Shown here: piece by piece, positions 18,392 through 55,066 of the stretch
How the letters are laid out: each line of letters starts with the position of its first letter
Numbering within the stretch: position 1 is the first letter of the stretch
From: a bacterium
Lineage (GTDB): Bacteria; CG2-30-53-67; CG2-30-70-394
Assembly (NCBI GenBank): GCA_024278555.1
Contig: JAJRSX010000183.1
Location: forward strand, 4,043-68,042
DNA: 64,000 nucleotides
Direction: 5' to 3'
The notes under the pieces: generated by a model
The model's database searches: none
What the model was told of the DNA's origin: nothing
What the model saw: the letters and a program-made list of their open reading frames with translations, nothing else
Program-made: the position numbers and the translations under genes

Positions 18392-18625
18392 ATGGTCGGG
18401 ATGGAGGCGGCGACCGAGGAGACCTTGGTGAAGCCGGAAGCGGTGGTCGGGTCGTTCAGCGACGAGACAGCCCATCTGTACTACCGTTTCTATGTGGGTA
18501 CCCGGGTCGGCGATAAGTACGTTTGTGTGGTGGTCAAGGTCGTTTCGGACGACGCCTTTGTGCTGACCGCGTATCTCACGGACAAGACGAAGAAGGGAAC
18601 GCAGATATGGCCAAACGAAACGTGA
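18392..18625 (+). CDS. DUF4258-like putative toxin; the conserved domain extends upstream of the first ATG into a frame closed by TAA at 18314-16 with no canonical start, so it is possibly decayed
   Basis: ...HLYYRFYVGTRVGDKYVCVVVKVVSDDAFVLTAYLT matches the DUF4258 C-terminal pattern. The upstream in-frame IRLTDERLAHVLEHPEM also fits the family but lacks ATG/GTG (only TTG at 18377). Confidence 0.4.
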   Translation: MVGMEAATEETLVKPEAVVGSFSDETAHLYYRFYVGTRVGDKYVCVVVKVVSDDAFVLTAYLTDKTKKGTQIWPNET

Positions 18626-18807
18626 AGATCTGGTACGACGCCGAAGGGGATTACCTGGAGGTGATCTACGATCAGCGGTCGGGCTATTTCCGTGAAACGG
18701 CTGCCGACCAGGTGACGGAGAAGGTGGATGAGGAGGGGGAGATTCTCGGGTTCTCCGTGTTACGGGTGAGCTCGTTGACGCGGAGCCCCCTGGAGGTGGC
18801 GCTCTGA
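18607..18807 (+). CDS. DUF2283 family protein (putative antitoxin partner)
   Basis: MAKRNVKIWYDAEGDYLEVIY...GEILGFSVL fits the DUF2283 signature. It overlaps the preceding gene's stop. Confidence 0.55.
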   Translation: MAKRNVKIWYDAEGDYLEVIYDQRSGYFRETAADQVTEKVDEEGEILGFSVLRVSSLTRSPLEVAL

Positions 18808-18832
18808 CGTCTCGCCGACGTGGGGCCGTAGG

Positions 18833-19033
18833 ATGATTGTGAAAATCACCTACGACAAAGAGGCGGACGCCCTCTACATTCGGCTGCTCGATGGGCATCA
18901 CGAGTGCCGGAATCTCGGAAGATCGAGTGTCCGATGGCCAGGTAGCTTGGGTCCCGGGTGTGTCCGTCGCGCGAGTCGTTCAGTCGCGGCCAGGTCCGTG
19001 CCGATCCGTAGAGAACTTTGTTTCTTTCGGTGA
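18833..19033 (+). pseudogene. second DUF2283 copy, truncated or frameshifted after ~21 aa
   Basis: MIVKITYDKEADALYIRLLDG matches the DUF2283 consensus almost perfectly, after which the frame degenerates into low-complexity Arg/Ser sequence. Confidence 0.35.
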
Positions 19034-19042
19034 GGTGCGGAA

Positions 19043-20788
19043 ATGGAAGCTGCCGACTCTGATGGCCGTGCGGGACGGGCGGGTGGGCCCGCGTCTCCCC
19101 CGCAGATCCCGGTGCGGATGCTCAACGAGTTCACCTACTGCCCGCGGTTGGGCTACCTCATGTGGGTCGACTCCGAGTGGGCGGATAGCCACCACACGGT
19201 GGAGGGACGGTGGCGCCACAAGCGGGTAGACAAGGCCCCGACCGAGGGGTTGCCCGAGGCAGACGGTACGCGCGATGAGCCGTTGCACGTGCGCTCGGTC
19301 AACCTGGGGAGTGAGCGGCTCGGCCTGGTGGCGAAGCTGGACGTGGTCGAGGCGGATGGCGAGACGGCCACCCCGGTGGACTACAAGCGAGGCAAGCGTC
19401 CCAAGGTCGAGGGTGGCGCGTATGACCCGGAGCGGGTCCAGCTCTGCGCCCAGGGGCTGTTGCTCCGCGAGCACGGTTATCGTTCGGAGGAGGGGGTCCT
19501 CTACTACGTCGGCTCGAAGGATCGGGTCACCGTCCCCTTCGATGATGACCTGGTCGCCTTGACCATGCGTCAGATCGAGCTCTTTGGGTTGGCGGCAGCG
19601 GCACCTCAGGCGCCGCCGCCGCTGGCCGACTCTCCCAAGTGTCCGTACTGCTCCCTGGTGGGAATTTGCCTGCCTGATGAGACCCGGATGCTGGCGCAAG
19701 AGACGACGGCGGATGCCGGCGACAACGGCAACGGCTCGAAGCCGGCACGCCATCGACCGCGACGTCTCCTGCCGGCGAGTGTCGATGCCCTGCCCCTCTA
19801 CGTCACCACCCAGGGGGCATACGTGGGAAAGAAACAGGAGGTACTGGTGATCAAGGAAAAGGGCGCCGTGGTGGCGGATGCGCGTATTCGCCACACCTCA
19901 CAGGTTGCCCTCTTCGGGAATGCTCAGGTCTCCACTCAGGCGCTGCGGGAGCTGTGCCGGAGGGGCATCCCGATCACCTACTTCTCCTCCGGCGGCTACT
20001 TCTACGGACTCAGCCATGGCATGAGCCACAAGAACGTGGGGTTGCGTATCGCCCAGTACGACACCGCGCGCAGGCCATCCCGTTGTCTCGACCTTGCCCG
20101 CCGTTTCGTGGCCGGAAAGATTGCCAACAGTCGCACGCTCCTGCGTCGCAACCATCGGAGCAAGCCGGAGGCAGAGCTCCGAGCACTCGCCCAATTGTTG
20201 CAGGAGGCGGAGGGCGCTGCTTCACTTCAGACACTCCTCGGTGTCGAGGGAATGGCCGCCCGAACCTATTTCGGTCGCTTCGGCGATCTACTCCGTCCCC
20301 CGGCCGGTGGTGATCCGGGGTTCGATTTCGAGCACCGCAACCGCCGTCCCCCGAGGGATCCGGTCAACGCCATGCTCTCCTTCGGCTACGCCCTCCTCAC
20401 GCGTGATTGGACCGTGACCCTGCTTTCCGTCGGTTTCGACCCCTATCTCGGTTTCTACCACCAGCCGCGCTACGGCCGTCCCGCCCTGGCGTTGGACATG
20501 ATGGAGGAGTTCCGCTCGTTGATCGTCGACTCTGTAGTGATATCAGCCATCAATAACGGTGAGCTCGGGGAGCCCGACTTCGTTCACGCCACCGGCGCGG
20601 TTGCCATGAGCACTCGTGGTCGTAAGGCCTTTCTTGCTGCGTACGAGAGGCGTCTTGCCCAGGAGATTTCCCACCCCGTGTTTGGCTACCGTATCAGCTA
20701 CAGGCGTATCTTTGAGGTACAAGCGAGACTACTCGCCCGAGTCATTCAAGGGGAAATTCCGGAGCTCCCCGCCTTTCGTCCGAGGTGA
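19043..20788 (+). CDS. cas1: Cas4-Cas1 fusion protein (probable true start ATG 19118)
   Basis: The N-terminal Cas4 part has MLNEFTYCPRLGY and the Fe-S Cys cluster CPYCSLVGICLPDE. The C-terminal Cas1 part has LPLYVTTQGAYVGKKQEVLVIKEKG. Confidence 0.85.
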   Translation: MEAADSDGRAGRAGGPASPPQIPVRMLNEFTYCPRLGYLMWVDSEWADSHHTVEGRWRHKRVDKAPTEGLPEADGTRDEPLHVRSVNLGSERLGLVAKLDVVEADGETATPVDYKRGKRPKVEGGAYDPERVQLCAQGLLLREHGYRSEEGVLYYVGSKDRVTVPFDDDLVALTMRQIELFGLAAAAPQAPPPLADSPKCPYCSLVGICLPDETRMLAQETTADAGDNGNGSKPARHRPRRLLPASVDALPLYVTTQGAYVGKKQEVLVIKEKGAVVADARIRHTSQVALFGNAQVSTQALRELCRRGIPITYFSSGGYFYGLSHGMSHKNVGLRIAQYDTARRPSRCLDLARRFVAGKIANSRTLLRRNHRSKPEAELRALAQLLQEAEGAASLQTLLGVEGMAARTYFGRFGDLLRPPAGGDPGFDFEHRNRRPPRDPVNAMLSFGYALLTRDWTVTLLSVGFDPYLGFYHQPRYGRPALALDMMEEFRSLIVDSVVISAINNGELGEPDFVHATGAVAMSTRGRKAFLAAYERRLAQEISHPVFGYRISYRRIFEVQARLLARVIQGEIPELPAFRPR

Positions 20789-21264: not shown

Positions 21265-22241
21265 ATTTCCGCAGCGTTAACGCTGCGGCCCCATTGAAGC
21301 TTGCGGATGATCTTGAACGCATGGCGACGCGGCAGATTTCCGCAGCGTTAACGCTGCGGCCCCATTGAAGCATTGCGACCTCCTCTTCAGAGCGCTTCTT
21401 TTTAGCGATTTCCGCAGCGTTAACGCTGCGGCCCCATTGAAGCAGCCCTCAGCGGGAGGGAGATTCGCAAGTTTTCCGGGATTTCCGCAGCGTTAACGCT
21501 GCGGCCCCATTGAAGCCAGGCGGGATTTGGTAGAAACGAATGAGGTCGTCACATTTCCGCAGCGTTAACGCTGCGGCCCCATTGAAGCGTGGCGTGGGTC
21601 ACGGCGGCGGCGGTGCTCTGCCTCGTTACCGCAGCGTTAACGCTGCGGCCCCATTGAAGCCGAGGAGCGGCACAAAGACGGGCGCACGTTCTATTTTATT
21701 TCCGCAGCGTTAACGCTGCGGCCCCATTGAAGCCCGACCGCGACAGTCTCAGCACGCCCCGCGCGGCCATATTTCCGCAGCGTTAACGCTGCGGCCCCAT
21801 TGAAGCTACGCAGTAGTCATAAGAGATCGACATCCCTAGCGTAATTTCCGCAGCGTTAACGCTGCGGCCCCATTGAAGCCCACGTCCTTCGACATGGACT
21901 TCGTCGTTGAGTTGATTTCCGCAGCGTTAACGCTGCGGCCCCATTGAAGCTCTAGGGCTGCTTTCGACGAGGTTCTGAAACTCCTCGCATTTCCGCAGCG
22001 TTAACGCTGCGGCCCCATTGAAGCGATCCATTGATTCCCACCCATGAGATTGCTCCATCTCATTTCCGCAGCGTTAACGCTGCGGCCCCATTGAAGCTCC
22101 AGCGGCAAGGTGGGGGACGGAGTCTACGGGTATGATTTCCGCAGCGTTAACGCTGCGGCCCCATTGAAGCACCCACTTCACTTCCCCCGCCACGGTTTTT
22201 TTGGTATTTCCGCAGCGTTAACGCTGCGGCCCCATTGAAGC
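21265..22241 (+). CRISPR. CRISPR array, 14 repeats / 13 spacers
   Basis: The 36-bp repeat ATTTCCGCAGCGTTAACGCTGCGGCCCCATTGAAGC has a palindromic core CCGCAGCG-TTAA-CGCTGCGG. Spacers are 35-38 bp. Repeat 6 (21625-21660) is a variant (GTTACC... instead of ATTTCC...). Confidence 0.95.
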
Positions 22242-34980: not shown

Positions 34981-35382
34981 GGCAGACCGAGGATAGAGGG
35001 ATTCGAAGGCGCACAGGGAACCACGCCCGGCGGTCGCGGGCCAGATGTCACCTCACCCCATCATCGTCGGGTGAGGATCTCCCGCGTAGAGGCCAAGACG
35101 CAGAGGAGGCCTTCGCGGTCGATGCTGAAGCCGATCCCGCTCTGACGTGAGCCGTGGGCGACGGCCGCGCCGTCGCTCGATCTCCGATCCATTCCGGGAG
35201 TGTTTCATGGGTACCCTGCTTTTCGCGGGGGGCTCTGGCCGGCCGCCGCCACCGCTGCTCAGGATCCGCACCACATCCCCCCCCGGGCCTCATCGCCCGC
35301 CTGCACCGCACCGACCTCGAAAGAGGGTCGGGCCGGACCACCGGGAGAGGGGGCATCTCCCCTCTCCCGGTGGCTCTCCTGC

Positions 35383-35787
35383 CTACCCGTCGATGCAGTC
35401 GTACGGCTTCGGCAGGCCGGCAAACTTGGTGCCCTGGAAGGCCGGCCCCTTGGGGAAGAGCTCGTACAGGTGGTCGCGGTCGAGCTTCTCGTCGCCCCAC
35501 TCCGCGCGCAGGTGGCGCAAGAGGATGCGGACATTGGGGGAGATGAGGTACTCGGCGTAGTAGCGGCGCAGGTAGTCGAGGATCCGCCAGTGCTCCTCGG
35601 TGAGGGCAATCCCGTCGAGGTGGGCGAGGACCGCGGCGATCTCCGGCGTCCACTGGTCTCGCTTGAGCATGTAGCCGTCATGGTTGGTCTCGACGGTCAT
35701 GCCGTGCATGGTGATCTCTTTGCCGTGCGGGGTCGGGCGGACGGTGACCTTGCCGGCGGGGGTGTTGAGCGTTGCGGTGGTGGACAT
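35383..35787 (-). CDS. TusE/DsrC family sulfur-relay protein, TusE-type (single C-terminal Cys: ...AGLPKPYDCIDG)
   Basis: The conserved DsrC/TusE C-terminal arm GLPKP..C is present. The second (DsrC CysB) cysteine is absent (QGTK). Confidence 0.7.
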   Translation of the reverse strand: MSTTATLNTPAGKVTVRPTPHGKEITMHGMTVETNHDGYMLKRDQWTPEIAAVLAHLDGIALTEEHWRILDYLRRYYAEYLISPNVRILLRHLRAEWGDEKLDRDHLYELFPKGPAFQGTKFAGLPKPYDCIDG

Positions 35788-35797
35788 GGCGGTCTCC

Positions 35798-36037
35798 TCA
35801 AGGTTGGGGGTTGTGTCCGAGGGCCTCGATCCGTGCCGCCACCTCCCCCTCTTCGGGAAAACGGCCCGTGGTGCGCTTGGAGAAGAGGAGCTCCCCGTTG
35901 ACGGCCACCTCGAAAACCCCCCCGTTGCCGCGCACCAGCTCGGGGGTGGCTCCGAAACGGTGCTCCAGCTCGGTCGCCAGCCTGGCGGCCCGGGGGCGGT
36001 AGTTTCACTGGCCGCAGTAGAGGATCTCGATCTTCAA
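35798..36037 (-). CDS. SelW/Rdx-family selenoprotein with in-frame UGA (Sec) codon at 36007..36005; TTG start
   Basis: Translation through the TGA gives [M]KIEILYCGQ-U-NYRPRAARLATELEHRFGATPELVRGNGGVFEVAVNGELLFSKRTTGRFPEEGEVAARIEALG. The CxxU motif sits in the Rdx position, and strong family conservation continues after the TGA (RPRA, GGVFEV, FSK, GRFP). The gene stop overlaps the tusE RBS. Confidence 0.7.
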
Positions 36038-36244
36038 GGGTTGGCTCCACGGTGGATCTCGGACTCGGTGTGGAGAAAACATACCAAAAAACATAGAGAT
36101 TGTCCGTTGATCCCGTTGCAGTCCTACCTTGGCCTTCGAATTCTTGCCTGACTGAATTGCCTGGGGCATGGTGCCGACCCTTTGACCTCGTGTTGGTTTT
36201 GACCCATCTCTATAGTTTGCTGTGTCTAAAGGAGGGCCTCATCC

Positions 36245-38179
<1,935 letters not shown>

Positions 38180-39676: not shown

Positions 39677-40507
39677 GTGAGTCACATGGCGAGGTCAGAC
39701 ACAGCGCCAGAGAGCACGACGGGGGCGGCAAAGTCCGGTGAGTCGGAGCGGCAGCGGGTCCCGTCTCGCCGGCGGATCCGAGGTCACCGCCTGTTGCAGG
39801 GGAGCGTCATGGCCCCCTTCGATCTCAAGGCCGCGGACTCCATTGAGGACGTCACGGCGGCGCTCTCCCTGGTTCACGACAGCTACGTCGAGCTCGGTCT
39901 CATCGATCCCCACCCGTCAGGACTGCGGCTGCTGCCCCACCACCTCCTCCCGGAGACCCGGGTCTTCCTCGCCCGCGAGCACGAAGAGGTGGTTGCCACC
40001 CTCACCCTCATCCCCGACACGGAGGCTGGCCTGCCGCTGGACTCGGCGTACCGGCAGGCTGCCGATGGGTTGCGGCTGGAAGGGCGAAGGATCGGTGAGA
40101 TCTCCTGCCTGGCGCTTGCCCCTCGCTACCGTCGTCATGACGTCCTCCTCCATCTCTTCCGGATGATGCATGTCTGCGCCCGGGCCACTGGCCTCGACGA
40201 CCTGTGCGTCGTCGTCGCCCCCAAACACGGCCGTTTTTATCAGCACATCCTGCTCTTTGAGCCGTACGGCGGCTTTGCCGAGCTCGACCACCTCAACGGT
40301 GCTCCGGCGCTCCTCTATCGCCAGGACCTGCGCACGATCGAGGAGACCACTCATGGGTACTACGCCTCCTCGCCGGCTGCCGCGGACCTCTACCAGTTCT
40401 TCTTCGAAGAGGCGGCGACCGTCAGAGCACGGGCGACCGCCGGCCGCGGCTTGACCCCCGCGGAGGTCGAGACGCTCCTCATGGGCCATCCGGAGCTTCA
40501 TATCTAG
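39677..40507 (+). CDS. GNAT-fold N-acyltransferase, Acetyltransf_5 / N-acyl amino acid synthase-like (paralog 1)
   Basis: FDLKAADSIEDVTAALSLVHDSYVELGLID...TLTLIPDTEAGLPLDSAY...GEISCLALAPRYRR fits autoinducer-synthase-like N-acyl amino acid synthases. Known from memory: a PEP-CTERM/exosortase-associated subfamily exists. Confidence 0.5.
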   Translation: MSHMARSDTAPESTTGAAKSGESERQRVPSRRRIRGHRLLQGSVMAPFDLKAADSIEDVTAALSLVHDSYVELGLIDPHPSGLRLLPHHLLPETRVFLAREHEEVVATLTLIPDTEAGLPLDSAYRQAADGLRLEGRRIGEISCLALAPRYRRHDVLLHLFRMMHVCARATGLDDLCVVVAPKHGRFYQHILLFEPYGGFAELDHLNGAPALLYRQDLRTIEETTHGYYASSPAAADLYQFFFEEAATVRARATAGRGLTPAEVETLLMGHPELHI

Positions 40508-40751
40508 GAGTCTGTCGGTGGGCGCGTCGAGGGGGTGGGTGTCGGTGATTGACCGACGTTCGGTGTAGTAAAAACGCGACGGTATTGCCCGGCTGGGAGA
40601 GCGGAGGCGCTGGCGGTGTATGCCTTTCCAGCCACTTCCACGCCACCGCGCGAATACGGCGCTGTGAACCCCTGGCACGGTAATTGCTTCTTAACTAAAA
40701 GCTGCACCGCGGAACCCCTCCTAGTTCTTCCCTCCCCTCCTGGATATCTCG

Positions 40752-41573
40752 ATGGAGCTTTCCCTTGTCCCCCGTCAGGAGCGTCGCCACGCCCATTCCG
40801 TCGAAGAGGTGTGGAACGTCCACTTTGCCCGGAGCGACCACGATTTCGCCGAGGCCCTCAGGCTGGTCCAGTCGCGCTACGAGATGCGTGGCTACACCCC
40901 GGAGGGCCCGGAGCGGGCGGAACTGACCCTCTATCATGTCCTCCCCGAGACCCGGACGATCTTGGTGAAGGCGCTGTCGCGTGTGCTCGCCACCGTTACC
41001 TTCGTTCCGGACTCGCCCCTCGGCCTGCCTGCCGAGCAGGTCTTCCGGGACGAGGTGGCCCCGTTGCGATCGGAGGGACGCCACCTCTCCGAGCTCTCCG
41101 CCCTGGCGGTGGCCGACCAGATCCGCATCGAGGATCGCCCCCACCTTTCCCGCTGGCTCTTCCACTCGATCGAGGCGCAGGTGCGTGGCGAGGGACGGGT
41201 CGATGACCTCCTGATCACCGTCAATCCGCGTCACGTCGCCTTCTATGATCGTCGACTCGGCTTCGAGGTGATCGCCGGACCGCGTCCCCATCCAAAAGTT
41301 CAGGGGGCGGATGCGGTGCTCATGCGCCTGCGGGCCGACGTCGACCGCACCCACCTCACCTGGTGGGAGCGCGCCAAGGAAGAGAGCCAGGGGCTCATCG
41401 CCTCCCTGCTGGCGAATGATCCCGGCTGGACCTGGGACGACCACCGTCTCATCGACTGGGCCGACACCCTTCGCCTAGTGGCCAACGAGGTCACCCACAC
41501 GGGTTGCGACTACCTCCGTCACCTCTTCCCGACCTTCCCCTGGCCGGAGGAGTGCGGCGCGCATCGCGGTTGA
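40752..41573 (+). CDS. GNAT-fold N-acyltransferase, Acetyltransf_5-like (paralog 2)
   Basis: Same architecture and motif order as 39677..40507 (FARSDHDFAEALRLVQSRYEMRGY...TVTFVPDSPLGLPAEQVF...SELSALAVAD). Confidence 0.5.
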   Translation: MELSLVPRQERRHAHSVEEVWNVHFARSDHDFAEALRLVQSRYEMRGYTPEGPERAELTLYHVLPETRTILVKALSRVLATVTFVPDSPLGLPAEQVFRDEVAPLRSEGRHLSELSALAVADQIRIEDRPHLSRWLFHSIEAQVRGEGRVDDLLITVNPRHVAFYDRRLGFEVIAGPRPHPKVQGADAVLMRLRADVDRTHLTWWERAKEESQGLIASLLANDPGWTWDDHRLIDWADTLRLVANEVTHTGCDYLRHLFPTFPWPEECGAHRG

Positions 41574-42665: not shown

Positions 42666-43916
42666 TCATCGTTGGGCGTTTCGCCGGAGCTGCCGGCTGA
42701 CGACCTGCTCAATGCGCTGCAAGGCCGGGTACTCACCCACCTGTTCCGTGAAGGCCTCGCGCACCGGCGCGAGCTGCTCCCGCAGACGGGTGGCCACTCC
42801 GCCCAACAGCCCCAGCAGGAACCGTGGCCTGATATCGCAGGCCCTTGCCAATGTCTCCCAGTGGGCGCGGGTGACGAGGCAGGGGTTGCGCTCGCCGCCG
42901 ACATCGAGGGCCAGATGCTCATCGATGCGCTTGATGGCGCGGGTGCACACCAGATCGTAGAATGGCGCCAGCCGGATGCCCTCGTGTGGGTGATACAACA
43001 GGGCGAGATTCTTCGCGTGTCCATCCGAGTTACCGGCGAGCACGTTGAAGATCTGCCAGCGCAGCAGGTGCTGTGCGTCGATGGCCGGCTCGCTGGAGAC
43101 CTCCCGCACCAGGCGATAGCACTGGGCAAAGGTCGGGCCACCATGTTCCTGGTACTTGTGCTCATGCCCATACCCCAGCGCCTGGCACAAATCCTCCTGG
43201 TGCAGCCGTTGCACCTCACCCTGTTCGTCGAAGAAACGGTCATAGCGACCAATTTCGGCAAACCGGTTCTCCCCGATGGTGTGCAGATGGATCTCCACCA
43301 CGGGCAGGCCCACGGCAGCGGCAAGGTGCATGGTGAAGGTCTCGTAGGCAGGCACATGACGGTAGTCGGCCAGCTCGAACTTCAGGATATGGCTGGAGGG
43401 TGCCTCGCCTCGGGGCAACCCGTAGCGGCCGTTTTGCAGCAACACCGGGCACTTGTTCTGGGCGCCGGCCAAGGACAGTCGTGGCCGCTCAACGGCGGGA
43501 TCGGTCGTATAGATCTGGCCGCGCCGGGCGGCCAGACCGGCCAGATCCTCGTCGCTCAGGGGCCGGTAACGTCGCTCCCGCGAGGGAGCCCGATCCAGGG
43601 GTAGGATCGACAACGCGCCGGCGCACTCGCCGCCAATGGCGCGCAGCAGCTCGAAATCGGTGTTGGGCAGCTTGAGGTCGTGGACAATCTGGTCGCGGAC
43701 GCCCCCCTCGGGCAGGAGATTGGCGAAGAAGCGATGGGCGATGGCCGCCTCGGGCGGAAACTCGCCGGTGGCCAGCGGCAGACTCTGGGAGATCGCAAAT
43801 CCGCTCGTGATCCACTCGGTGTCGTACCGAAACCCCATCGCGCCGATGGCGTTGCGCCAGAGGGTGCCGACCCGGCGCCGTTCGTACCAGACGTGAAGCG
43901 AATCCAGGTCGCTCAT
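42666..43916 (-). CDS. hipA: HipA-family serine/threonine kinase toxin
   Basis: An N-terminal HipA coupling domain (LHVWYERRRVGTL) and the C-terminal kinase domain; 416 aa. Overlaps hipB by 4 bp. Confidence 0.8.
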   Translation of the reverse strand: MSDLDSLHVWYERRRVGTLWRNAIGAMGFRYDTEWITSGFAISQSLPLATGEFPPEAAIAHRFFANLLPEGGVRDQIVHDLKLPNTDFELLRAIGGECAGALSILPLDRAPSRERRYRPLSDEDLAGLAARRGQIYTTDPAVERPRLSLAGAQNKCPVLLQNGRYGLPRGEAPSSHILKFELADYRHVPAYETFTMHLAAAVGLPVVEIHLHTIGENRFAEIGRYDRFFDEQGEVQRLHQEDLCQALGYGHEHKYQEHGGPTFAQCYRLVREVSSEPAIDAQHLLRWQIFNVLAGNSDGHAKNLALLYHPHEGIRLAPFYDLVCTRAIKRIDEHLALDVGGERNPCLVTRAHWETLARACDIRPRFLLGLLGGVATRLREQLAPVREAFTEQVGEYPALQRIEQVVSRQLRRNAQR

Positions 43917-44203
43917 GAGCTTGGCACGCGCTCGTCATCAGGCCGCGCCTCCGGTTGCCCGCGCGGCCGAACGATCACCTCCAGCCCCAAGGTGCGCAAC
44001 GCCTTCAGCACCTTGCCGATCTCTGCGGTCTCCTTGCCCCGCTCGAGCTCGGAGAGAAATCGCACACTCAGATTACCCAGCCCCGAGATCACCTCCAGGG
44101 TCAGCTTTCGTTGCTTGCGGTGGGCGCGCAGCAGGTAGCCGAGCTCCTCGATCGTGCGGATGGGGCCGTAAGGGAGATCTGTCTTGGGCATGTGCGCCCT
44201 CAA
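43913..44203 (-). CDS. hipB: HipB-like XRE-family HTH antitoxin
   Basis: HTH motif RKQRKLTLEVISGLGNLSVRFLSELERGKE, located immediately upstream of hipA. Confidence 0.7.
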   Translation of the reverse strand: MRAHMPKTDLPYGPIRTIEELGYLLRAHRKQRKLTLEVISGLGNLSVRFLSELERGKETAEIGKVLKALRTLGLEVIVRPRGQPEARPDDERVPSS

Positions 44204-44413: not shown

Positions 44414-45484
44414 TCACGGCCCCGCGAGGAAGCTCGCCGCCGGCCGCCGCAGGCTTCGGGCGCGGGCGGGGGGGCCGTGGCCGACGCGAAAGAGGAGGAC
44501 CATGGCGCTCGCCTCGTCCACCGGGAAGAGGCCGCGAAGCAGCTTCCACGCCTCCTCCAGCCAGCGCCGCTGGCGACCGTCGAAGGCGTCCGGGCCGTGG
44601 CGCAGAAGCCGGCGGATGAAGAGGGTGGCGACGGTCATCGGCTGGAAACGGATCGACTCGGCAGTGGCGGCGAGCCAGATGCGTTCCATCGCCCTCCCCC
44701 CCTTGAGAAAGGTGGTCTCCCCCTCCTGTGGTGACCACAGGAGCCCGATCGCCGGGGCGGAGACGGCCAGACGGGTGGTGGGGAGGGTGAGGCCGCGATA
44801 GGCGCCCAGGCGGTTGAGGGCGGCCATACGCGGCCACGGTCGCACCGCCTTCAGAAAGGGGCCGGCGAAGGGGCCCGCCTCCAGGGTAGGGATCGCCATG
44901 CCGTCGCGGGTCGCCTCCGCCTCGGCGCGGGAGAAGCGCAGCTCCGCCATGAGCGACTCGTGGGCGAGCGGATGGGTGTAGCGGACCCAGTCGGCGAGGC
45001 GGATCACATGGCAAATCTTCGAGAGCGCTGCCTGCTCCGTGAGCCAGGTGAGGGTCGTGTCGGAGGTGGCGGCATCCGCCACCTGGTTCGCCAGCCAGTC
45101 GGCAGGCAACGGCCGCCGGTCGAAGGGCCGCCGGTTCACGCACCGCCCGGGGATCGCCGCGGCGAGCGGCGAGTCAAGAGGCTCTGCGGGCTCGAAGGTC
45201 AGGCGCGCCACCGGCCCCTCCCCCCCCTCGGGCCACCATGCCATCTCGGCGCCAAACCCCCGCGCCCCTGCCTCCAGCTCGACGTTGGCCGCCACGGCGC
45301 CCGCCGAGGCCAGCGCCCCGACTCGGTCTACCTCGAAGAAGTTGTCGCTCCGCTCAGCGTCCAAGAAGAGGTAGAGGCTCTCTCCCTGCCACCGGAACCG
45401 CCACGGCTGCGAGTTGTCCCCCGACGGGGCGCGTATCGCCGCCGCCAGGAGGGCTTGCCGGGTCGCCTCGTCCATTCCCGTCAT
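44414..45484 (-). CDS. nitroreductase-family / SagB-type dehydrogenase-like protein
   Basis: Nitroreductase signature IRAPSGDNSQPWRF. At 356 aa it is about twice the size of a single nitroreductase domain. Its ATG overlaps the ThiF-like gene stop (ATGA). Confidence 0.55.
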   Translation of the reverse strand: MTGMDEATRQALLAAAIRAPSGDNSQPWRFRWQGESLYLFLDAERSDNFFEVDRVGALASAGAVAANVELEAGARGFGAEMAWWPEGGEGPVARLTFEPAEPLDSPLAAAIPGRCVNRRPFDRRPLPADWLANQVADAATSDTTLTWLTEQAALSKICHVIRLADWVRYTHPLAHESLMAELRFSRAEAEATRDGMAIPTLEAGPFAGPFLKAVRPWPRMAALNRLGAYRGLTLPTTRLAVSAPAIGLLWSPQEGETTFLKGGRAMERIWLAATAESIRFQPMTVATLFIRRLLRHGPDAFDGRQRRWLEEAWKLLRGLFPVDEASAMVLLFRVGHGPPARARSLRRPAASFLAGP

Positions 45485-46311
45485 CCGAGTTTCCGACGCA
45501 GGTACCACAGCTTCGCCCGCTGGATCGGGTTGCGGTTGCCCCACGGCATTACCCCCTTCTTGTAGATCCTGCAGTAGGGATCGAACTGGAAGTAGCGGGG
45601 TGCGCAGGGCGGCCGGCCGCGCTTGAGGAGGATTCGGATCGCCTCGGTGGCCGCCATGCCGGCGCACAGGTCTGTGGCCAGCGCCAGCGAAGGCCCCTTG
45701 CCCGAGCGCAGGTCCACGTGGCCGAGGTCCATGTAGGCGAGCTGGGTTGCCCGGGGGGTGAGGCCGAGGGCGAAGCGGAGGCGTTGATCGAACACCTCCT
45801 GCCCATCGTGAATGTCGAAGTAGTCATCGAAGGTGGTCCCGCGGGGGTCAAACACCAGCATGGCGCAAGAGAAGCCGATGGGCCCCGCGGTGATTACGTA
45901 GATGCCACGCTCAGCGGCCTCCCGGAAGAGGAGTCGCCTGGCGTCGAGGGCGAAGAAGTCGAGTCCGTCCACCACCAGATCCACGCCGTCGAGGAAGGCA
46001 TCGATGTTCCCCGCGTGGATCCCCTCGGGAAAGGAGACCACCTCCGACTCCGGGTTGATCTTCGCCACCCACTCCGCCATCACCTCCACCTTCGCCCGTC
46101 CTACCGTATCCACGCTTGCCCCGAATTGGCGGTTGAAGTTCGCCTCCTCGAAGAGGTCGAGGTCGGCAAGGTGGAAGCGGCCGATCCCGAGGCGTGCGAA
46201 GGTGGCGGTGTGGATGCCACCGACCCCACCGAGACCTGGGATCGCGATGCATCGTGTCGCGAGCAATTGCTGCTCCACCTCATCGATCAGGCCACGATTG
46301 CGAGAGTACAC
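45481..46311 (-). CDS. ThiF/MoeB/HesA-family E1-like adenylyltransferase
   Basis: Nucleotide-binding motif IAIPGLGGVGG and E1-like Rossmann fold; 276 aa, no rhodanese or E2 domain. Confidence 0.6.
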   Translation of the reverse strand: MYSRNRGLIDEVEQQLLATRCIAIPGLGGVGGIHTATFARLGIGRFHLADLDLFEEANFNRQFGASVDTVGRAKVEVMAEWVAKINPESEVVSFPEGIHAGNIDAFLDGVDLVVDGLDFFALDARRLLFREAAERGIYVITAGPIGFSCAMLVFDPRGTTFDDYFDIHDGQEVFDQRLRFALGLTPRATQLAYMDLGHVDLRSGKGPSLALATDLCAGMAATEAIRILLKRGRPPCAPRYFQFDPYCRIYKKGVMPWGNRNPIQRAKLWYLRRKLG

Positions 46312-48106: not shown

Positions 48107-51100
48107 CTACTTCACCGGGCAGAGGGGACCACCGTTACGGCTGTCGCCATCGACGACCTCGAAGTCACCGCGCACCAGTCCCGGGCCGATCGGCTGGGAA
48201 CAGCTCGTGTGGATCTTGGCGTGGAACTTTCCCTCCACGTAGATCTTGATCTCGGTGCCGAGGGTGCCCTTCTTGTCGTTCCCCACCAGGTTGATCAGGT
48301 CGCCCGGGACAACCGTGTCCTGGAAGACGCGGCTCCCCTTCTTCTGCTGCACCTCGACAAACGCCGCGGTGGCGCCGTTGTAGCGCAGGGTCAGGTTGGT
48401 CACCCTGCCGTCGCAGCCGCAGGCGGCCGGCGGAGTGGACGGCGGCTCAGGCATGGCGACATCTTCGGAGTCGCTGTCGCCGTCGCCGTTCGAATCCTCG
48501 CCGGAATCACTGTCCGAATCGGGGCAACCGGAGAGGGCCGCCTCGGAGTCGCTGTCGCCGTCGCCGTTGGTGTCGATCCCGGAGTCGCTGTCCGAGTCCC
48601 CCGCGCTGCTCGTACCGCAGGGCGAGTCCACCGGGCAGAGGAGCGAGAACTCACGGCTCGCACCGTCGACCACCTCGAAGTCACCACGGATCAGCCCCGG
48701 CCCGATGGGCTGCGAGCAGCTCGTGTGGATCTTCGTCTGCAGCTCACCGTTGACGTAGACCTTGATCTCCGTCCCCAGAGTGCCCTTCTTGTCGGTGCCG
48801 GTGAAGGAGAAGCTCATATTCGGATCGACATCCCCCTCGAAGACGACCGTGTGGTCCTTTTTCTCCTCCACGCGGATCGCCGCGGTGGCGCTACCGAGGT
48901 AGCGCAGGGTGAGGGAGGTCACCTTGCCCTCACAGCCACAGGGCTCTTCGGGCGGAGTCTGCTGGCAGGTGACCGTGGCCGTGTCCGTCGCCTCACACAC
49001 GGCACCGGTGGCCAAAGAGCCGGTCGCCGTTACCGTGTTGGTGGTGTCGGCGCAGACGGAGGCTACCTTCGAGACCGTCTGGCTCTCGCCGGTCGCCAGC
49101 ACCGGGATGGTGGCGACAACGCCCAGCTTGTCATCGACCACCTGCACGTTCGCCACCGGCGGCCCATTATTGGTCACCACGTAGGTGTAGGTGACGTTGT
49201 CGCCGGTGCAGGCGGGGGCCGGCGGAGGTGTCCCGCCGGTCGCTTCCGAGTCGGAGTCACCATCGCCATTGGTGTCGATGCCGGAGTCGCTGTCCGAGTC
49301 GCCGGGGAGTGCCTCGGAGTCGCTGTCGCCGTCACCGTTGCGGTCGATGCCGGAGTCGCTGTCCGAATCGCCCGGGAGGGCTTCCGAGTCGCTATCGCCG
49401 TCACCGTCGCGGTCGATGCCGGAGTCGCTGTCGCTGTCGGCCGTGCTGCCGGAGACATCCATAGCGCACAGCTTGCCGCCCTCCTTGCTCGATCCGTCGA
49501 CCACTTCGAAATCGCCACTTACCAGCCCCGGACCGATGGGCTGCGAGCAGCTCGTGTGGATCTTCGTGTGCAGCGCGCCGTTGACGTAGATCTGGATCTC
49601 CGTGCCGAGGGTCCAGTGCTTGTCGGTGCCGATGAAGGAGAAGATCTCTCCCGGTGCCACCGTACCGCTGAAGACCACGTCACCATCCTTTTTCTGCTGG
49701 ACCGCGACAAAGGCCGGGTCGCTGCCGTTGTAGCGCAGGCTCAGCTCGGTCACCTTGCCCTCGCAGCCACACTCGGCCGGCGGCGGGGGGGGAGTCGTGC
49801 AGTCAACGACCTCGGGAGAGGCGGTCTTCACCACCGTCAGATCACACGTCTCGATGGTACAGGTCGCCGAGCAGCCGTCACCGTTGATCGTGTTGCCGTC
49901 GTCGCACTCCTCGCCCACGTCGAGGATCCCGTCGCCGCAGGTGGGGTTCATGCAGTTGGCCTGGCAGCCGTCGCCATCGATATTGTTGCCGTCGTCGCAC
50001 TGCTCGGGCGGAGTGAGGATGCCGTCGCCGCAGAACTCGTTGCCGCAGTTGGCGTTACAACCGTCGCCGTTGACGTTGTTGCCGTCATCACACTGCTCAC
50101 CCGGGTCGAGGATTCCGTCACCACAGGCGGGAAGCCTGCAATCGGCCTGGCAGCCGTCACCGCTGATGTTGTTGCCGTCGTCGCACTGCTCGCCCGTGTC
50201 GAGGATGCCGTCACCGCAGAAGGGCAGGGAGCAATCGGCCTGGCAGCCGTCGCCGCTGATGTTGTTGCCGTCGTCGCATTGCTCGCCGGCATCGACGATG
50301 CCGTCGCCGCAGACGGGCAGGGCGCAGTTGGCCTGGCAGCCATCGCCGTTGATGTTGTTGCCGTCATCGCACTGCTCGCCGGCATCGGGGATCCCATCGC
50401 CGCAGCGCGGGTTCATGCAGTCGGCCTGGCAGCCATCGCCGTTGATGTTGTTGCCGTCGTCACACTGCTCACCGGCATCGAGGATCCCATCGCCGCAGCG
50501 CGGGTTCATGCAATTGGCCTGGCAGCCGTCACCGTCGATGTTGTTGCCGTCGTCGCATTGCTCGGGCGGAGTGAGGATGCCGTCGCCGCAGAACTCGTTA
50601 CCGCAGTTGGCGTTACAGCCGTCGCCACTGATGTTGTTGCCGTCATCGCACTGCTCGCCGGCATCGAGGATCCCATCACCGCAGATGGGATACATGCAAT
50701 TGGCCTGGCAGCCGTCACCGTCGATGTTGTTGCCGTCATCGCACTGCTCACCCGGGTCGAGATAACCATCGCCACAACGGGCGACCGTACAGTCGCTGTG
50801 ACAGCCATCGGTCTCGACCAAGTTGCCGTCATCGCACTCCTCGCCGGGATCGACGATCCCGTCACCGCAGACCGGCACGGTGCAGTCATTTCGGCAACCG
50901 TCCGTATTGTCCATATTGCCGTCATCGCACTGCTCGCCGGCGTCGACGATCCCGTCGCCGCAGAAGGGCAAGGTGCAGTCGTTACGGCAGGCGTCAAAAT
51001 TGTCCTGATTTCCGTCGTCGCACTCCTCGCCTGGATCGACGATGCCGTTACCGCAGACAGGAGTAATGATAGGATAAACGATGACCGGATCATTGCTCGA

Positions 51101-51961
51101 GAAATACCATGGAGAGGTTTCGTCGCCACTGTTGAGTACAGCGTCGAAGCCCGCAAAATCATTGTTTTGTTGCAACTCTGATGCCCCGACAAGATCCGTC
51201 AGTACCTGGGGAGTGGTGTCGCCAAGTTCGATCTCGTTCGGGTCATTCAAGCCGGAAAAGGCAAATCCGGTATTGTTCATGATGGCATTGAGTGCCAGTT
51301 GTGCATTGCCCACAAAGGCACCAAATGCGGCGTTAATGGGGACATGGCTATAGGCGAATCCATCGCTCGGATCGTTGTCGGCGCCGGCCCCGCAGCTGAG
51401 CCAAAGGAGGCCGTCTGTTGCCTTGGCAACATCGTCCATGAGGTTGGCTACGGTGATCTCAGCGCCCCGTCCCGGGGCGGTTCCTTTGCCGTTTGTGGGT
51501 ACCGTCCCGTTGAACTCAAAGGGCGTTGCTCCGGGTCCACTATCGTGCCAAATCCGGTACATTTCTCCAGCAGCCAGGTCGAGCTTGCCGAAGGGATCGA
51601 ACGTGGGCTGCCCAAGAGTCAGGTGAGGGTTGAGCCCGGGATTAGCAGAGAATGGATCTGGAGGTCCATCGATTGCGATGACCTTTTGTACAAAGTATCC
51701 GGTAAGCTGATCGGTTGCAGATTTAGTCCACGATGAAACGCCATTGGTGACGATCTCCTGGACATCGAGAATGCCAATAATGTGGTCACCGACCTCGATG
51801 GGAACTCCGGAAAACGGTGCTGAAAACAGGGTGCCATCGGCCTTGTAGAGCACTTCGAAATTCTTGAAAAAAATCTGGTTCGCGGCGTCAGGGACGAGCA
51901 CTTGGGCAGAGACCGGGGTTGAGGTTGCCCCCATAGTCAGAAGAAACAACACGAGCAACAT
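48107..51961 (-). CDS. large secreted repeat protein (~1284 aa): novel N-terminal domain + ~20 Myxococcus cysteine-rich repeats + three ~100-aa modules separated by Asp/Ser-rich Ca-binding-like repeats
   Basis: Signal peptide MLLVLFLLTMGATSTPVSAQ. Myxococcus cysteine-rich repeats of the form CGDGI(L/V)D.GEQCDDGNN..GDGCQA.C. The triplicated module is CGCEGKVT.L.LRY.G...A...V..KKD..VVF.G.V.P...F.F.GTDK.GTLGTEI..YVNG.L.TKIHTSCSQPIGPGL..GDFEVVDG. The SDSDSGID.NGDGDSDSE repeats resemble thrombospondin type 3-like calcium-binding repeats. Confidence 0.75.
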   Translation of the reverse strand: MLLVLFLLTMGATSTPVSAQVLVPDAANQIFFKNFEVLYKADGTLFSAPFSGVPIEVGDHIIGILDVQEIVTNGVSSWTKSATDQLTGYFVQKVIAIDGPPDPFSANPGLNPHLTLGQPTFDPFGKLDLAAGEMYRIWHDSGPGATPFEFNGTVPTNGKGTAPGRGAEITVANLMDDVAKATDGLLWLSCGAGADNDPSDGFAYSHVPINAAFGAFVGNAQLALNAIMNNTGFAFSGLNDPNEIELGDTTPQVLTDLVGASELQQNNDFAGFDAVLNSGDETSPWYFSSNDPVIVYPIITPVCGNGIVDPGEECDDGNQDNFDACRNDCTLPFCGDGIVDAGEQCDDGNMDNTDGCRNDCTVPVCGDGIVDPGEECDDGNLVETDGCHSDCTVARCGDGYLDPGEQCDDGNNIDGDGCQANCMYPICGDGILDAGEQCDDGNNISGDGCNANCGNEFCGDGILTPPEQCDDGNNIDGDGCQANCMNPRCGDGILDAGEQCDDGNNINGDGCQADCMNPRCGDGIPDAGEQCDDGNNINGDGCQANCALPVCGDGIVDAGEQCDDGNNISGDGCQADCSLPFCGDGILDTGEQCDDGNNISGDGCQADCRLPACGDGILDPGEQCDDGNNVNGDGCNANCGNEFCGDGILTPPEQCDDGNNIDGDGCQANCMNPTCGDGILDVGEECDDGNTINGDGCSATCTIETCDLTVVKTASPEVVDCTTPPPPPAECGCEGKVTELSLRYNGSDPAFVAVQQKKDGDVVFSGTVAPGEIFSFIGTDKHWTLGTEIQIYVNGALHTKIHTSCSQPIGPGLVSGDFEVVDGSSKEGGKLCAMDVSGSTADSDSDSGIDRDGDGDSDSEALPGDSDSDSGIDRNGDGDSDSEALPGDSDSDSGIDTNGDGDSDSEATGGTPPPAPACTGDNVTYTYVVTNNGPPVANVQVVDDKLGVVATIPVLATGESQTVSKVASVCADTTNTVTATGSLATGAVCEATDTATVTCQQTPPEEPCGCEGKVTSLTLRYLGSATAAIRVEEKKDHTVVFEGDVDPNMSFSFTGTDKKGTLGTEIKVYVNGELQTKIHTSCSQPIGPGLIRGDFEVVDGASREFSLLCPVDSPCGTSSAGDSDSDSGIDTNGDGDSDSEAALSGCPDSDSDSGEDSNGDGDSDSEDVAMPEPPSTPPAACGCDGRVTNLTLRYNGATAAFVEVQQKKGSRVFQDTVVPGDLINLVGNDKKGTLGTEIKIYVEGKFHAKIHTSCSQPIGPGLVRGDFEVVDGDSRNGGPLCPVK

Positions 51962-52056
51962 GGAGCGGTTCGTTTTCTGGTTGATCCTCACGGTGGATTC
52001 CTTTCTGAAAGGGTACGGCTGGAAGGTGAACGAGAGAAGAGCCGGTACTTGGTTCT

Positions 52057-52182
52057 GGGAGTCTGTCGGACTCGGCCCGGAAGGGCTTCGTAACTCATTG
52101 AAACCATTGCGTTCGTGTTTCAGAATCCAATGATGCACTTTCAATGAAAACAAACCCACATGGAGAAAATCCGACAGATGCT
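52057..52182 (+). mobile_element. MITE-like element copy E (same TIRs GGAGTCTGTCGGAC...ATCCGACAGATGCTC, different low-GC internal sequence)
   Basis: The terminal inverted repeats match the family, but the internal ~100 bp is unrelated and AT-richer. It lies ~100 bp upstream of the giant protein start. Confidence 0.5.
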
Positions 52183-52899
52183 CTCTGAAGTTGAACTCTC
52201 AATGTTCAATGCATGCAAGTTTGATGCCGTGTGCCGCGAGCCCCCCTCTGTCGAGGGCGTTGTGGCGGAGTGAAACCCTGAAAAATTATATAGTTGCAGG
52301 CAGCGCCTTTGGTGCCGTCCGGGTCCATTGAGGGGGGCGCTGTCGCTAATAGATACAGACAGCAGGAGTCGGGTCGCGAGTAAGTTGTAAACGCTGTGGA
52401 CACTTTACCGCCGTGCTATTGCATGGATGATGCTGCATTTCTCGTGTTTACCGCTAGTTATGGGCGCAAAGCAGTTGTTTATTTCTTTGACAGTTCTCCT
52501 CCCGGAGTTTTCTGGATGAGACGGGCGCGGCACATACGGCACACCGAGAAGAGGGCGCCGGAGTCGGTCGAGTCGTGGTGGCGATTGGCGACGATACAAG
52601 AATTGTTGCCGCCGGCCGCCGAGGGTGGTTGCCGAGGGTGGTTGTCGTTCAACCATTGCGAGGCTCAAGATTTGTCACGCCCGGTTTCCCGGAGGTACGC
52701 GATAGTGGAGGATGTCCGGCCCATGGAGGTTTCGCAGATGAGCCACGTGCGGGGGCAGAGGGGGGCTTCGATCCCATCAATGGGCGCGGGGGCTGGCCGT
52801 GTGGCGACCGACGTGTTTTCCGGAGTCGCCGTGCTGCCGCGTCGATCGGCGGAGCCGGAGAGCCGGCGATGGGGGAATGCAATCGCTCCCCAGCTCTTG

Positions 52900-53030
52900 T
52901 CAGGGGGCTTTCGGACCTGGCCCCGATCTACTGCGAAAAGAGGGATTACGGACCCGGTCGCCATCCCGCCCTACGGCGCATGGGCCTCCTGCGTTCCGAG
53001 AAGGGGAGGCAACCCGGACTACGAACCCGT
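52900..53030 (+). repeat. partial/divergent MITE-family copy D
   Basis: ...TTTCGGACCTGGCCCCGATCTACTGCGAAAAGAGGGATTACGGACCCGGTCGCCATCCCGCC... shares the core GATCTACTGCG(G/A)AAAG with the other copies. Confidence 0.45.
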
Positions 53031-53382
53031 TTCACGTCGTGCCGATCGTCAGACCACAGCAGCCTCTTGGGCGAGCCACAGGTTACGGCGCCCAGGGACC
53101 CGGATGTGCCGAGCTGCCGTTCGGAAGGAGATACTGTCGTGCTCGAACGAGGAAAAAGTTCGTGAGGTAGCCGCTACACGGGTGAATGCTCTGGCCGATC
53201 CCCTCTAGATCTGAGATGGCTGCCAGCCGCTCACCATCAACACCCGCCTCATCGCCTATGAGGAGAAGTAGATCGTTCGTGTGTGGATCTTCAGCCGTAG
53301 AGCCATATAACCCAATCCTGCGCGTCCATGAAGCTATCACTATACAGACGATCAGCTGAGTGATAGTGAAGGAGAACAAGGT

Positions 53383-55032
53383 TTGACGAACTACAAACAT
53401 TTCGACGTGTGCATCGTCGGCACCGGTGCTGCTGGAGGGATTTTGGCTCACGCACTAGTGCGCTCTGGTTTGCGTGTCGTTTCTCTGGAGCAGGGGGAAA
53501 TTGTCAACCAGGATGAATTTCACAATGAACTAACCCCGGAGCAGAAAGGAAACTTCGGAATCACGAGGAACACCAAGTTTCCAGAAGTAGACCCGGACGT
53601 TCTTCAGCATGGTTTGTATGCGGGGCTGAGTACAAGGTCAACCTCTTCCGGGAGTGAGTCTGTTTTTAAGCAGTATCAAATCTACGCAGTAGGTGGTCTC
53701 CAGAATCTGTGGAGTGGCGTGAGTGTTAGATTTTCCCCGAGTGATTTCAGCACCAGAGTGCTTGGTCTTGAAGGACCTGATTGGCCGATTGACTACAAGG
53801 ACATTGCGGATCATTACGAGGCTGTTGAGCGCCGTATCGTGGTCTGCGGTACACGAGAGAATCTCGCGGACATTCCGGATGGTAAGTTCATTCCTCCAAA
53901 GCCATTACGACCGCCAGATCTACTCGTTGCCGGTGCGATTGAGCGATGTTCCGGTGGCACAGTGAAAGCAGTTCCATGCCGAAAGGCCGTGGAGACGCGG
54001 AAGGACAGGGGAAACGCATGTAGTAGCTGCGGGCACTGTTACGAGGGGTGTCAGCGTGGAAGTGTATATACATTCGGCAGCAGGCTGTTGCCGGAAATAC
54101 AGAATAAAGAGAACTATCTGCTAAAGCAAAACGTAAAGGTCGTGGCGCTGCGCTGCGGAGCATCAAACGCCATCTGTGGCCTTGACTGTATAGATGTCAA
54201 GACGCTGCGTCGGTTCAGCGTAGAGGCAGGTCTATACATAATGTCTGCTGGCGCCATCGAAACGCCCCGGGTGCTGCTGAATTCGGAATCGTCTCGTTCG
54301 GGATGCGCAGTCGCAAACGGGTCTGGTCTGGTAGGACGGTATCTTCAGGATAACCCAAGCGTTATGTACGGCGGATCGTTGATGAAGTTGTGGGTACGAG
54401 GCGTACCATACGATGTCGGATATGGTGAGCACATGCTCATCTCTGGCGTCTTGGGAGATGCGGGGGGCAGCGACGTCGACGAGGAATTTTCGGTATTTGG
54501 TCAGCTGTACCATGACTTCTGTAGGGAGCCGCTGTATTTGAAAGATATTTACTGGCTGCCATCGTGGTTGCGGTCGGTGGTCGCGAAAAAGATATTTGGG
54601 AGCACGATTGGTCTCGTGTTGTGGTCCTCGGCCGATCCATCAAGAGAAAACATGCTCACTGTTTCAGACGAGCGGGACTGTTATGGGGTTCGTAAAGTTG
54701 ATGTTTCTTACGGCTGCTCACAACTGGAGAGCGCAAGGATGGCGGTGCTGCGTAAATTCTCCAGACGCGTCATGAAAAGGGCATCGGCGTTGGTTTCTGT
54801 TGAGCTCCCGAGGCCTCCTGGTTCCGGTATCCACTATGTCGGAACGTGCCGTATGTCGGACGCGGAAGAACAAGGTGTCGTCGACAAGAACCTCAAGGCG
54901 CACAACCATCCAAACCTATATATTTGCGACGGTAGTGTCTTGCCAACATTACCCCCAAAACACTGCACACTGACGATAATGGCGCTCGCCGACAGGCTGG
55001 CAGAGCATCTGATATCCCTGCAGAAGGAATAG
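53383..55032 (+). CDS. GMC-family FAD-dependent oxidoreductase (TTG start)
   Basis: An FAD-binding N-terminus (DVCIVGTGAAGGILAHAL) and a GMC C-terminal region (IHYVGTCRMS), in visibly lower-GC sequence than the flanks. Confidence 0.75.
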   Translation: MTNYKHFDVCIVGTGAAGGILAHALVRSGLRVVSLEQGEIVNQDEFHNELTPEQKGNFGITRNTKFPEVDPDVLQHGLYAGLSTRSTSSGSESVFKQYQIYAVGGLQNLWSGVSVRFSPSDFSTRVLGLEGPDWPIDYKDIADHYEAVERRIVVCGTRENLADIPDGKFIPPKPLRPPDLLVAGAIERCSGGTVKAVPCRKAVETRKDRGNACSSCGHCYEGCQRGSVYTFGSRLLPEIQNKENYLLKQNVKVVALRCGASNAICGLDCIDVKTLRRFSVEAGLYIMSAGAIETPRVLLNSESSRSGCAVANGSGLVGRYLQDNPSVMYGGSLMKLWVRGVPYDVGYGEHMLISGVLGDAGGSDVDEEFSVFGQLYHDFCREPLYLKDIYWLPSWLRSVVAKKIFGSTIGLVLWSSADPSRENMLTVSDERDCYGVRKVDVSYGCSQLESARMAVLRKFSRRVMKRASALVSVELPRPPGSGIHYVGTCRMSDAEEQGVVDKNLKAHNHPNLYICDGSVLPTLPPKHCTLTIMALADRLAEHLISLQKE

Positions 55033-55066
55033 GTAATGACGGTGTCGCGCGTGGCGAGAGAATGTA

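Follow-up and report, generated by a model that had tools for sequence, protein, structure and literature searches.

A predicted SelW-like selenoprotein gene with an in-frame UGA, paired with a one-Cys DsrC-like gene in a Nitrospirota-like clade

The stretch of DNA analysed here (64,000 nucleotides with a GC content of 65%, hereafter the window) carries 41 predicted genes of a Nitrospirota-like bacterium. Among them, a short minus-strand gene of the SelW-like/Rdx family, interrupted by an in-frame TGA, lies between a divergently transcribed acetate-CoA ligase gene and a gene of the DsrC/TusE/DsvC family (Table 1). Read from position 36037, the codons of the short gene run TTG AAG ATC GAG ATC CTC TAC TGC GGC CAG TGA AAC TAC CGC, and the whole frame translates as L (from TTG) KIEILYCGQ, a TGA, NYRPRAARLATELEHRFGATPELVRGNGGVFEVAVNGELLFSKRTTGRFPEEGEVAARIEALGHNPQP and a terminal TGA (35800..35798), the product ending in NPQP. 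The GC content at third codon positions (GC3) of this frame is 0.85 (1.0 before the internal TGA and 0.85 after it), the real genes of the window having values of ~0.9, and the coding sequence on both flanks of the UGA is conserved in this high-GC3 frame.

Table 1. Coordinates of the features at the locus (positions in the window).
Feature	Position	Strand	Properties
Acetate-CoA ligase gene, acs	36245..38179	plus	NF001208 1068.7 bits; divergently transcribed; kept neighbour in L001-L008
GGAG ribosome-binding site of Rdx gene	36045..36048	minus	7 nt upstream of TTG, inside GATCCACCGTGGAG
Predicted SelW-like/Rdx selenoprotein gene	35798..36037	minus	TTG start; 79 codons; TGA stop
In-frame UGA	36005..36007	minus	codon 11; same codon TGA in L001-L008, L090, L091 and L113
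bSECIS-like hairpin, GGCCGCCA-GGC-UGGCGACC	35972..35990	minus	+18..+36 from U of UGA; one C·A mismatch
117-aa ORF	35697..36050	minus	overlaps both real genes; GC by codon position 0.77/0.75/0.49
GGAG ribosome-binding site of DsrC-like gene	35794..35797	minus	abuts Rdx TGA stop, TGAGGAGACCGCCATG; kept in L001-L004 and L006
DsrC/TusE/DsvC-family gene	35383..35787	minus	134 aa; PF04358 123.3 bits; TIGR03342 124 bits; GC3 0.95
Perfect GC-rich hairpin, 16 bp	35337..35374	minus	just after DsrC-like stop; no U tract; from fold

The remaining genes of the window are of diverse kinds and include nosZ with accessory genes, a type I-G CRISPR-Cas system, hrcA-grpE-dnaK-dnaJ, a LolD-like ABC ATPase, a response-regulator diguanylate cyclase, a histidine kinase, proS, acs and a hipBA-like pair, among others. 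The TAT-type nosZ (551-2380) is followed by a single ORF of 1103 aa (2484-5795) with a NosR match at residues 37-663 and a NosD match at residues 699-1068 in one frame; this is a NosR-NosD fusion unless the ORF finder has joined two genes. The cas genes (11113-20788) form a complete type I-G set (cas3g, cas8g/csx17, cas7g/csb1, csb2 and a cas4g-cas1g fusion), and downstream of them lies a CRISPR array (21265-22241) with 14 copies of the 36-nt repeat ATTTCCGCAGCGTTAACGCTGCGGCCCCATTGAAGC. At 42669-44203, a HipA-like kinase gene with a HipB/Y4mF-like antitoxin gene immediately upstream constitutes a type II toxin-antitoxin pair. Three separate smaller ORFs at 39677-41573 and 44417-45667 match parts of PRK14851/PRK14852 and Rv1355c-type models, including the Acg-family FMN-binding oxidoreductase portion. 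A protein of 1350 aa (48110-52159) matches the myxococcal 'cysteine-rich acidic repeat' 12 times (TIGR02232, 357 bits), and the ~5.6 kb that follow (52160-57770) hold no ORF with the high-GC3 coding pattern seen elsewhere in the window; this stretch may be foreign or non-coding DNA.

At the Rdx locus itself, the list of open reading frames contains a 45-aa GTG-start ORF (35798..35935, minus strand), a 54-aa ORF ending at the internal TGA and the 117-aa ORF of Table 1. The last was rejected as a gene, its GC3 of 0.49 being unlike that of the coding genes of this genome and well below the 0.85 of the Rdx frame; it is therefore a wrong-frame artefact, as the first-pass annotation of this DNA had judged. 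The same annotation had held that standard ORF finders split or miss the gene, and this is indeed what happened in related genomes, where the public calls are all C-terminal fragments of 45-56 aa.

The start proposed for the gene, TTG, also stands. An ATG-start ORF (36169..36005) was considered as an N-terminal extension and discarded, because a 1-nt indel separates the close relatives upstream of the TTG, two of them have in-frame stops there, and in distant homologs an ATG start occupies the place of the TTG. The GGAG is kept in all 7 aligned close relatives, with a spacer that varies by 1 nt and so shifts the upstream frame. An upstream frame that is shifted and interrupted between relatives, together with a TTG placed 7-8 nt after a conserved GGAG, therefore identifies TTG as the start. 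The leader motif that holds this ribosome-binding site (GATCCACCGTGGAG, 36045-36058) is kept in 6 of the 7 aligned close relatives, L005 differing at two bases, and a T-rich stretch ~45-50 nt upstream of the TTG is likewise conserved among them. Either may be a regulatory element common to the divergent acs gene. A sigma-70 promoter scan of the intergenic region found none.

Profile searches were run on the 79-residue protein with selenocysteine (Sec) written as Cys, and they place it in the Rdx family. The check that the first-pass annotation had proposed, a match to Pfam Rdx (PF10262), gave 78.4 bits (cut-off 22.6), with residues 2-71 on profile positions 1-73 of 74, so that the match covers both sides of the internal TGA. 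The NCBIfam model NF041051, 'SelT/SelW/SelH family (seleno)protein', scored 93.6 bits (cut-off 88) and TIGR02174, CXXU_selWTH, 66.1 bits (cut-off 34.2). The redox motif C8-G-Q-U11 is in register with the YCxxU/YCxxC of 75 homologous loci. Sequence similarity extends to solved Rdx-family proteins, namely the bacterial structural-genomics proteins 2ojl, 2p0g and 2fa8 and mouse SelW 2npb (E values from 2e-9 to 5e-6), and a thioredoxin-like fold is expected for the product. CXXU SelW-like proteins are a long-described bacterial selenoprotein family with few Cys homologs (PMC1088965, PMC1794560), and no other selenoprotein family was as abundant in the Sargasso Sea data (PMC1088965).

When 5.8 billion predicted proteins were searched, just 5 matches emerged, all of them C-terminal fragments of 45-56 aa; it follows that gene callers have truncated the gene everywhere. 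At the level of DNA, the six contigs behind these matches (L001-L006) and the closest genome match, an uncultured Nitrospirota MAG (L007) that is 92-95% identical to the window across acs-Rdx-DsrC, share with the window both the TTG start and the in-frame TGA, with the protein sequence kept on both sides of the TGA and synonymous change elsewhere. Altogether, TTG and TGA are both kept in 11 of 11 readable close-relative loci (seven at 84-92% protein identity and four at ~60-67%). A scan of one genome per species yielded 117 relatives; the best 80 loci were retained, 75 of them with a readable motif. In these 75 loci, which come from many phyla, the CxxU codon is TGA in 67 and TGC or TGT in 8. 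The Cys forms belong mostly to Melainabacteria/Obscuribacter-type MAGs, plus one Desulfofustis. Judged from the sequences, such alternation of Sec and Cys at the CxxU position is the classical signature of a selenoprotein family. The first-pass annotation had named orthologs with a stop at this position as a finding that would speak against a selenoprotein. That reasoning was reversed, since a conserved TGA is what a selenoprotein predicts, and the TGA is kept in all intact relatives examined.

These observations bear on the simplest alternative, namely that the TGA is a true stop and that the locus is either a decayed pseudogene or a 10-codon leader followed by the 45-aa GTG ORF (35935..35798). 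Such an arrangement would agree with the short fragments called on related metagenome contigs and with the use of TGA as a normal stop in this genome, and there is a lineage (L088 and L089, 82% identity; represented by contig Ga0210039_1000237) in which the Rdx gene has become a remnant. In that remnant (~4850-4990 in both L088 and L089), however, a deletion of ~140 bp, from the ribosome-binding site GTGGAG to an internal GTGGAGGGCGAG, has removed the start codon, the CxxU motif and the hairpin described below, and the remainder has a 1-nt frameshift; a real pseudogene of this clade thus looks quite different from the gene in the window. The TGA occupies the same codon in 67 loci of many phyla, the residues that separate it from the GTG (NYRPRAARLA...) are conserved and fit the Rdx model, and the 10 codons before it are conserved with synonymous changes at a GC3 of 1.0. 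Termination at codon 11 therefore appears extremely improbable. The L088/L089 remnant may instead reflect loss of the selenocysteine trait in that lineage.

Further evidence for recoding comes from the RNA. A hairpin spans 15-33 nt after the UGA in the window, and in almost all TGA forms of the family positions +18..+24 pair with +30..+36 (U of UGA = 1) around a loop of 3-5 nt. In an ungapped alignment of 64 distinct family sequences, 86.6% of cells form standard pairs and 4 of the 7 pairs show compensatory double changes; pair 21-33, for example, occurs as C-G, G-C, U-A and A-U. Cells with double changes number 49, against 13.6 ± 3.0 in column shuffles, and in a control in which the 3' arm was slid by 1-3 columns, pairing falls to 24-56%. 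The loop residue G26 is invariant in the same alignment.

Since the helix lies inside the conserved codons R-A-A-x-L-A-A, a control for the protein sequence was made by re-drawing synonymous codons. The observed mean of 6.08 of 7 pairs compares with 4.4-4.5 expected (sd 0.115), and none of 1000 synonymous-codon shuffles reaches it, whereas the 7 distinct Cys forms average 3.86 of 7 pairs. Among close relatives, of the 11 codons covering the 33 nt downstream of the UGA only 1 varies at its third position, versus 29 of 57 in the remainder of the gene (Fisher p = 0.017). A hairpin that is under selection at the RNA level in TGA forms, and weak in Cys forms, is, as far as sequence comparison can tell, the signature of SelB-dependent recoding.

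The copy in the window is a weaker example of this element. An Ala-to-Thr change (GCC to ACC) at the hairpin produces a C20·A34 mismatch that occurs in only 4 of the 64 sequences, and the hairpin energy is -9.7 kcal/mol, compared with -16.9 in close relatives; the upper five pairs and the loop are intact, and 6 of 7 pairs form. Taken alone, these 6 of 7 pairs are not significant (p ~0.09 vs synonymous shuffles), and folding the 66 nt downstream of the UGA as a single sequence by minimum free energy gives nothing notable (z = 0.01), so the SECIS argument rests on the family comparison. An Rfam scan of 35300..36300, with E values up to 10, matched no SECIS family. Thus, the first-pass annotation was right to expect a hairpin after the UGA, and this hairpin is conserved and covarying, but it starts 14 nt rather than 11 nt after the UGA and has the loop GGC instead of an apical GU.

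It could also be argued that the UGA is read through without selenium, either by a near-cognate Trp or Cys tRNA or under a reassigned code, giving a CxxC- or CxxW-type Rdx protein in an organism that has no Sec pathway. The absence of Sec-pathway genes from the DNA searched is in line with this: there is no selA, selB or selD among the 41 predicted genes of the window and no tRNA gene in its 64 kb; selA, selB, selD and tRNA-Sec are likewise missing from ~90 kb of related loci, and a tRNA search of 14 related loci found tRNA-Leu only and no tRNA-Sec. Nevertheless, TGA terminates 23 of the 41 predicted genes in the window, the Rdx gene included, and is the commonest stop codon there; being the usual stop, it is therefore not reassigned in this organism. 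The selection on the hairpin in TGA forms, its weakness in Cys forms and the membership of the protein in a documented selenoprotein family also count against selenium-free read-through, which we consider very unlikely. Sec-containing proteins have been reported in Nitrospirota (PMC13510729). A crude screen of the window for other TGA read-through genes gave nothing convincing; its thresholds missed even the Rdx gene, which makes the screen uninformative.

It is reasonable to conclude that 36037..35798 on the minus strand very probably encodes a 79-residue SelW-like (Rdx) selenoprotein whose in-frame UGA is read as Sec. This agrees with the first-pass annotation, whose central claim is supported by the profile cut-offs passed, the conserved TGA, its alignment with Cys and the covarying hairpin. 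The mRNA would be translated from the TTG, and the UGA at codon 11 would be recoded because the hairpin 15-33 nt downstream, which codes for R-A-A-R-L-A-T, acts as a bacterial SECIS and recruits SelB with Sec-tRNA(Sec); the second UGA, which has no such hairpin, would terminate the gene. The predicted Cys8-x-x-Sec11 redox centre would stand at the start of the expected thioredoxin-like fold, and the product, presumably a small thiol-oxidoreductase, would cycle between selenol/thiol and selenenylsulfide forms.

The gene downstream begins with an ATG 10 nt after the Rdx stop. Its product belongs to the DsrC/TusE/DsvC superfamily (PF04358 cut-off 24.9, TIGR03342 cut-off 53.5), and its alignment with A. 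vinosum DsrC 1yx3 runs end to end (E = 2.8e-28); similarity to TusE 7syb is lower (E = 1.7e-10). An exact-sequence look-up retrieved no record identical to it. It has a single conserved C-terminal Cys, C131, in a C-terminus of the PKPYDCIDG type (...AGLPKPYDCIDG), and at the CysB position there is Thr (QGTKFAGLPKPYDCIDG vs QACRFAGLPKPTGCV). The DsrC arm motif is AGLPKPTG.C, with at most one difference allowed (PMC8477390); AGLPKPYDC differs from it at two positions, and two extra residues follow CI. The score on the TusE equivalog NF008562 is 104.5 bits against a cut-off of 191. Having one Cys, a sub-threshold TusE score and an arm motif that is off at two positions, the protein is neither a bona fide DsrC nor a TusE, and it is best described, from its sequence features, as a one-Cys DsrC-like protein. 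The first-pass label 'TusE-type' was thus apt for the single C-terminal Cys, whereas the TusE assignment itself fails and the closest match is the Allochromatium vinosum DsrC. The physical coupling that it had reported is evident in the 10-nt spacer and in the GGAG placed directly at the Rdx stop. No dsrAB or dsrMK was found among the 41 predicted genes of the window, and among the window genes there is no dsrAB or tusBCD nearby. The hairpin at 35374..35337 probably marks the end of a two-gene transcript, a terminator function being suggested by its position; in a scan against Rfam, the same hairpin drew a cluster of miRNA-type matches, which were judged spurious.

The order acs (divergent), Rdx, DsrC-like is the same in L001-L007 as in the window. 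In a survey from the Rdx side, a DsrC-family gene near Rdx was seen only in the window, L001-L007 and L008 (61% identity); ~70 family loci from other phyla have no DsrC neighbour, and neighbour clustering over 75 loci, which was noisy because of spurious high-GC ORFs, revealed no universal neighbour of the Rdx family. A metagenome scan from the DsrC side found 6 further PKPYDCIDG-type loci. In three of them (L090, L091 and L113, 62-64% identity) the Rdx gene upstream of the DsrC-like gene is intact and contains the TGA, in L087 the upstream Rdx(TGA) gene is cut by the contig end, and L088 and L089 retain only the Rdx remnant described above, with the DsrC-like gene intact and its C-terminus the same. 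An Rdx(TGA) gene followed by a DsrC-like gene is therefore found in the window, L001-L008, L087, L090, L091 and L113, and the pairing is limited to one Nitrospirota-like clade. All PKPYDCIDG-type loci found thus have Rdx or its wreck upstream, yet this DsrC-like subtype can persist without an intact Rdx gene. No paper combining DsrC, SelW and selenoprotein was found in the literature searched; thus, the clade-specific Rdx(Sec)/DsrC-like module appears undescribed. It should be noted that the selenoprotein family has long been known and that only its clade-specific pairing with a one-Cys DsrC-like protein is new.

What this pairing means is a separate question from the nature of the selenoprotein. 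The two genes probably share a transcript, and the DsrC-like protein keeps only the swinging-arm Cys at its C-terminus. In this clade, the selenoprotein would most likely act on that Cys, where it would reduce or resolve a persulfide or mixed disulfide. In its most explicit form, the proposal is that Sec-Rdx and a dedicated one-Cys DsrC-like protein (...PKPYDCIDG) make up a two-component selenium-sulfur relay, in which Sec11 attacks a persulfide or disulfide of Cys131 and neither DsrAB nor TusBCD takes part; this is a tentative and rather doubtful reading. Such a relay might be tied to the divergent acetyl-CoA synthetase. There is, however, an even chance that the selenoprotein is real but sits beside the DsrC-like gene without functional consequence, the two genes being a transcript inherited within the clade and the selenoprotein having a general thiol-redox role. 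The varied, DsrC-free neighbourhoods of family members in other phyla suggest as much, as does the persistence of the DsrC-like gene, with an unchanged C-terminus, in L088 and L089 after the Rdx deletion. Mere inheritance accords less well with a gene order kept down to ~60% protein identity (L008, L090, L091 and L113), with a 10-nt spacing and a ribosome-binding site on the stop codon that are kept in most close relatives, or with the presence of Rdx or a remnant upstream of every locus of this DsrC-like subtype.

The selenoprotein itself will not surprise a specialist. Within the context of annotation, however, gene callers have the gene wrong across the public metagenomes, reporting either a 45-56-aa fragment or an ORF in another frame; correctly read, it would identify its host, a Nitrospirota-like bacterium, as a user of selenocysteine. 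The conserved and translationally adjacent one-Cys DsrC-like partner offers a concrete candidate substrate for a bacterial SelW-like protein, and the lineage that has the partner and no selenoprotein provides a natural, built-in comparison. If true, the selenium-sulfur relay would provide bacterial SelW-like proteins with their first physiological partner.

Bacterial SelB-binding hairpins have their archetype in the SECIS of Escherichia coli fdhF. Like it, the element described here is a stem-loop that follows the UGA directly within the ORF and has a small apical loop; in contrast, its helix begins 14 nt, not 11 nt, past the UGA, its loop is of the GGC, GGU or AGU type with 3-5 nt, and no bulged U is evident. 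A small apical loop with a conserved G is a feature of bacterial SECIS elements (PMC1088965). With regard to DsrC (Allochromatium vinosum 1yx3 and Archaeoglobus fulgidus 1sau) and TusE (7syb), the neighbouring protein shares the PF04358/TIGR03342 family, the AGLPKP arm and the C-terminal Cys, but it differs from DsrC in having Thr for CysB, an arm that ends in YDCIDG instead of TGCV and a 25-residue N-terminal extension.

The partners of the mammalian selenoprotein W/Rdx group (SelT, SelH and Rdx12/MIEN1) include 14-3-3 and glutathione, for which no counterpart is shown here. This group belongs to the same Pfam family and has CxxU/CxxC at the same position, and the similarity is detectable in sequence (E = 4.8e-6 for mouse SelW 2npb and 1.4e-7 for human C17orf37/MIEN1, 2ljk); however, its eukaryotic members use a SECIS in the 3'-UTR together with SBP2/eEFSec, whereas the element in the window lies inside the coding region, as in bacteria. 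The closest likeness is to the bacterial SelW-like selenoproteins (PF10262; TIGR02174; NF041051), with which the predicted protein shares a length of ~80 residues, an N-terminal CxxU, rare Cys homologs and an in-frame UGA with a SECIS hairpin downstream of it in the coding sequence. Nothing essential differs from these proteins; the copy in the window comes from a Nitrospirota-like lineage, starts with TTG, has one mismatch in the SECIS stem and is followed immediately downstream by the DsrC-like gene.
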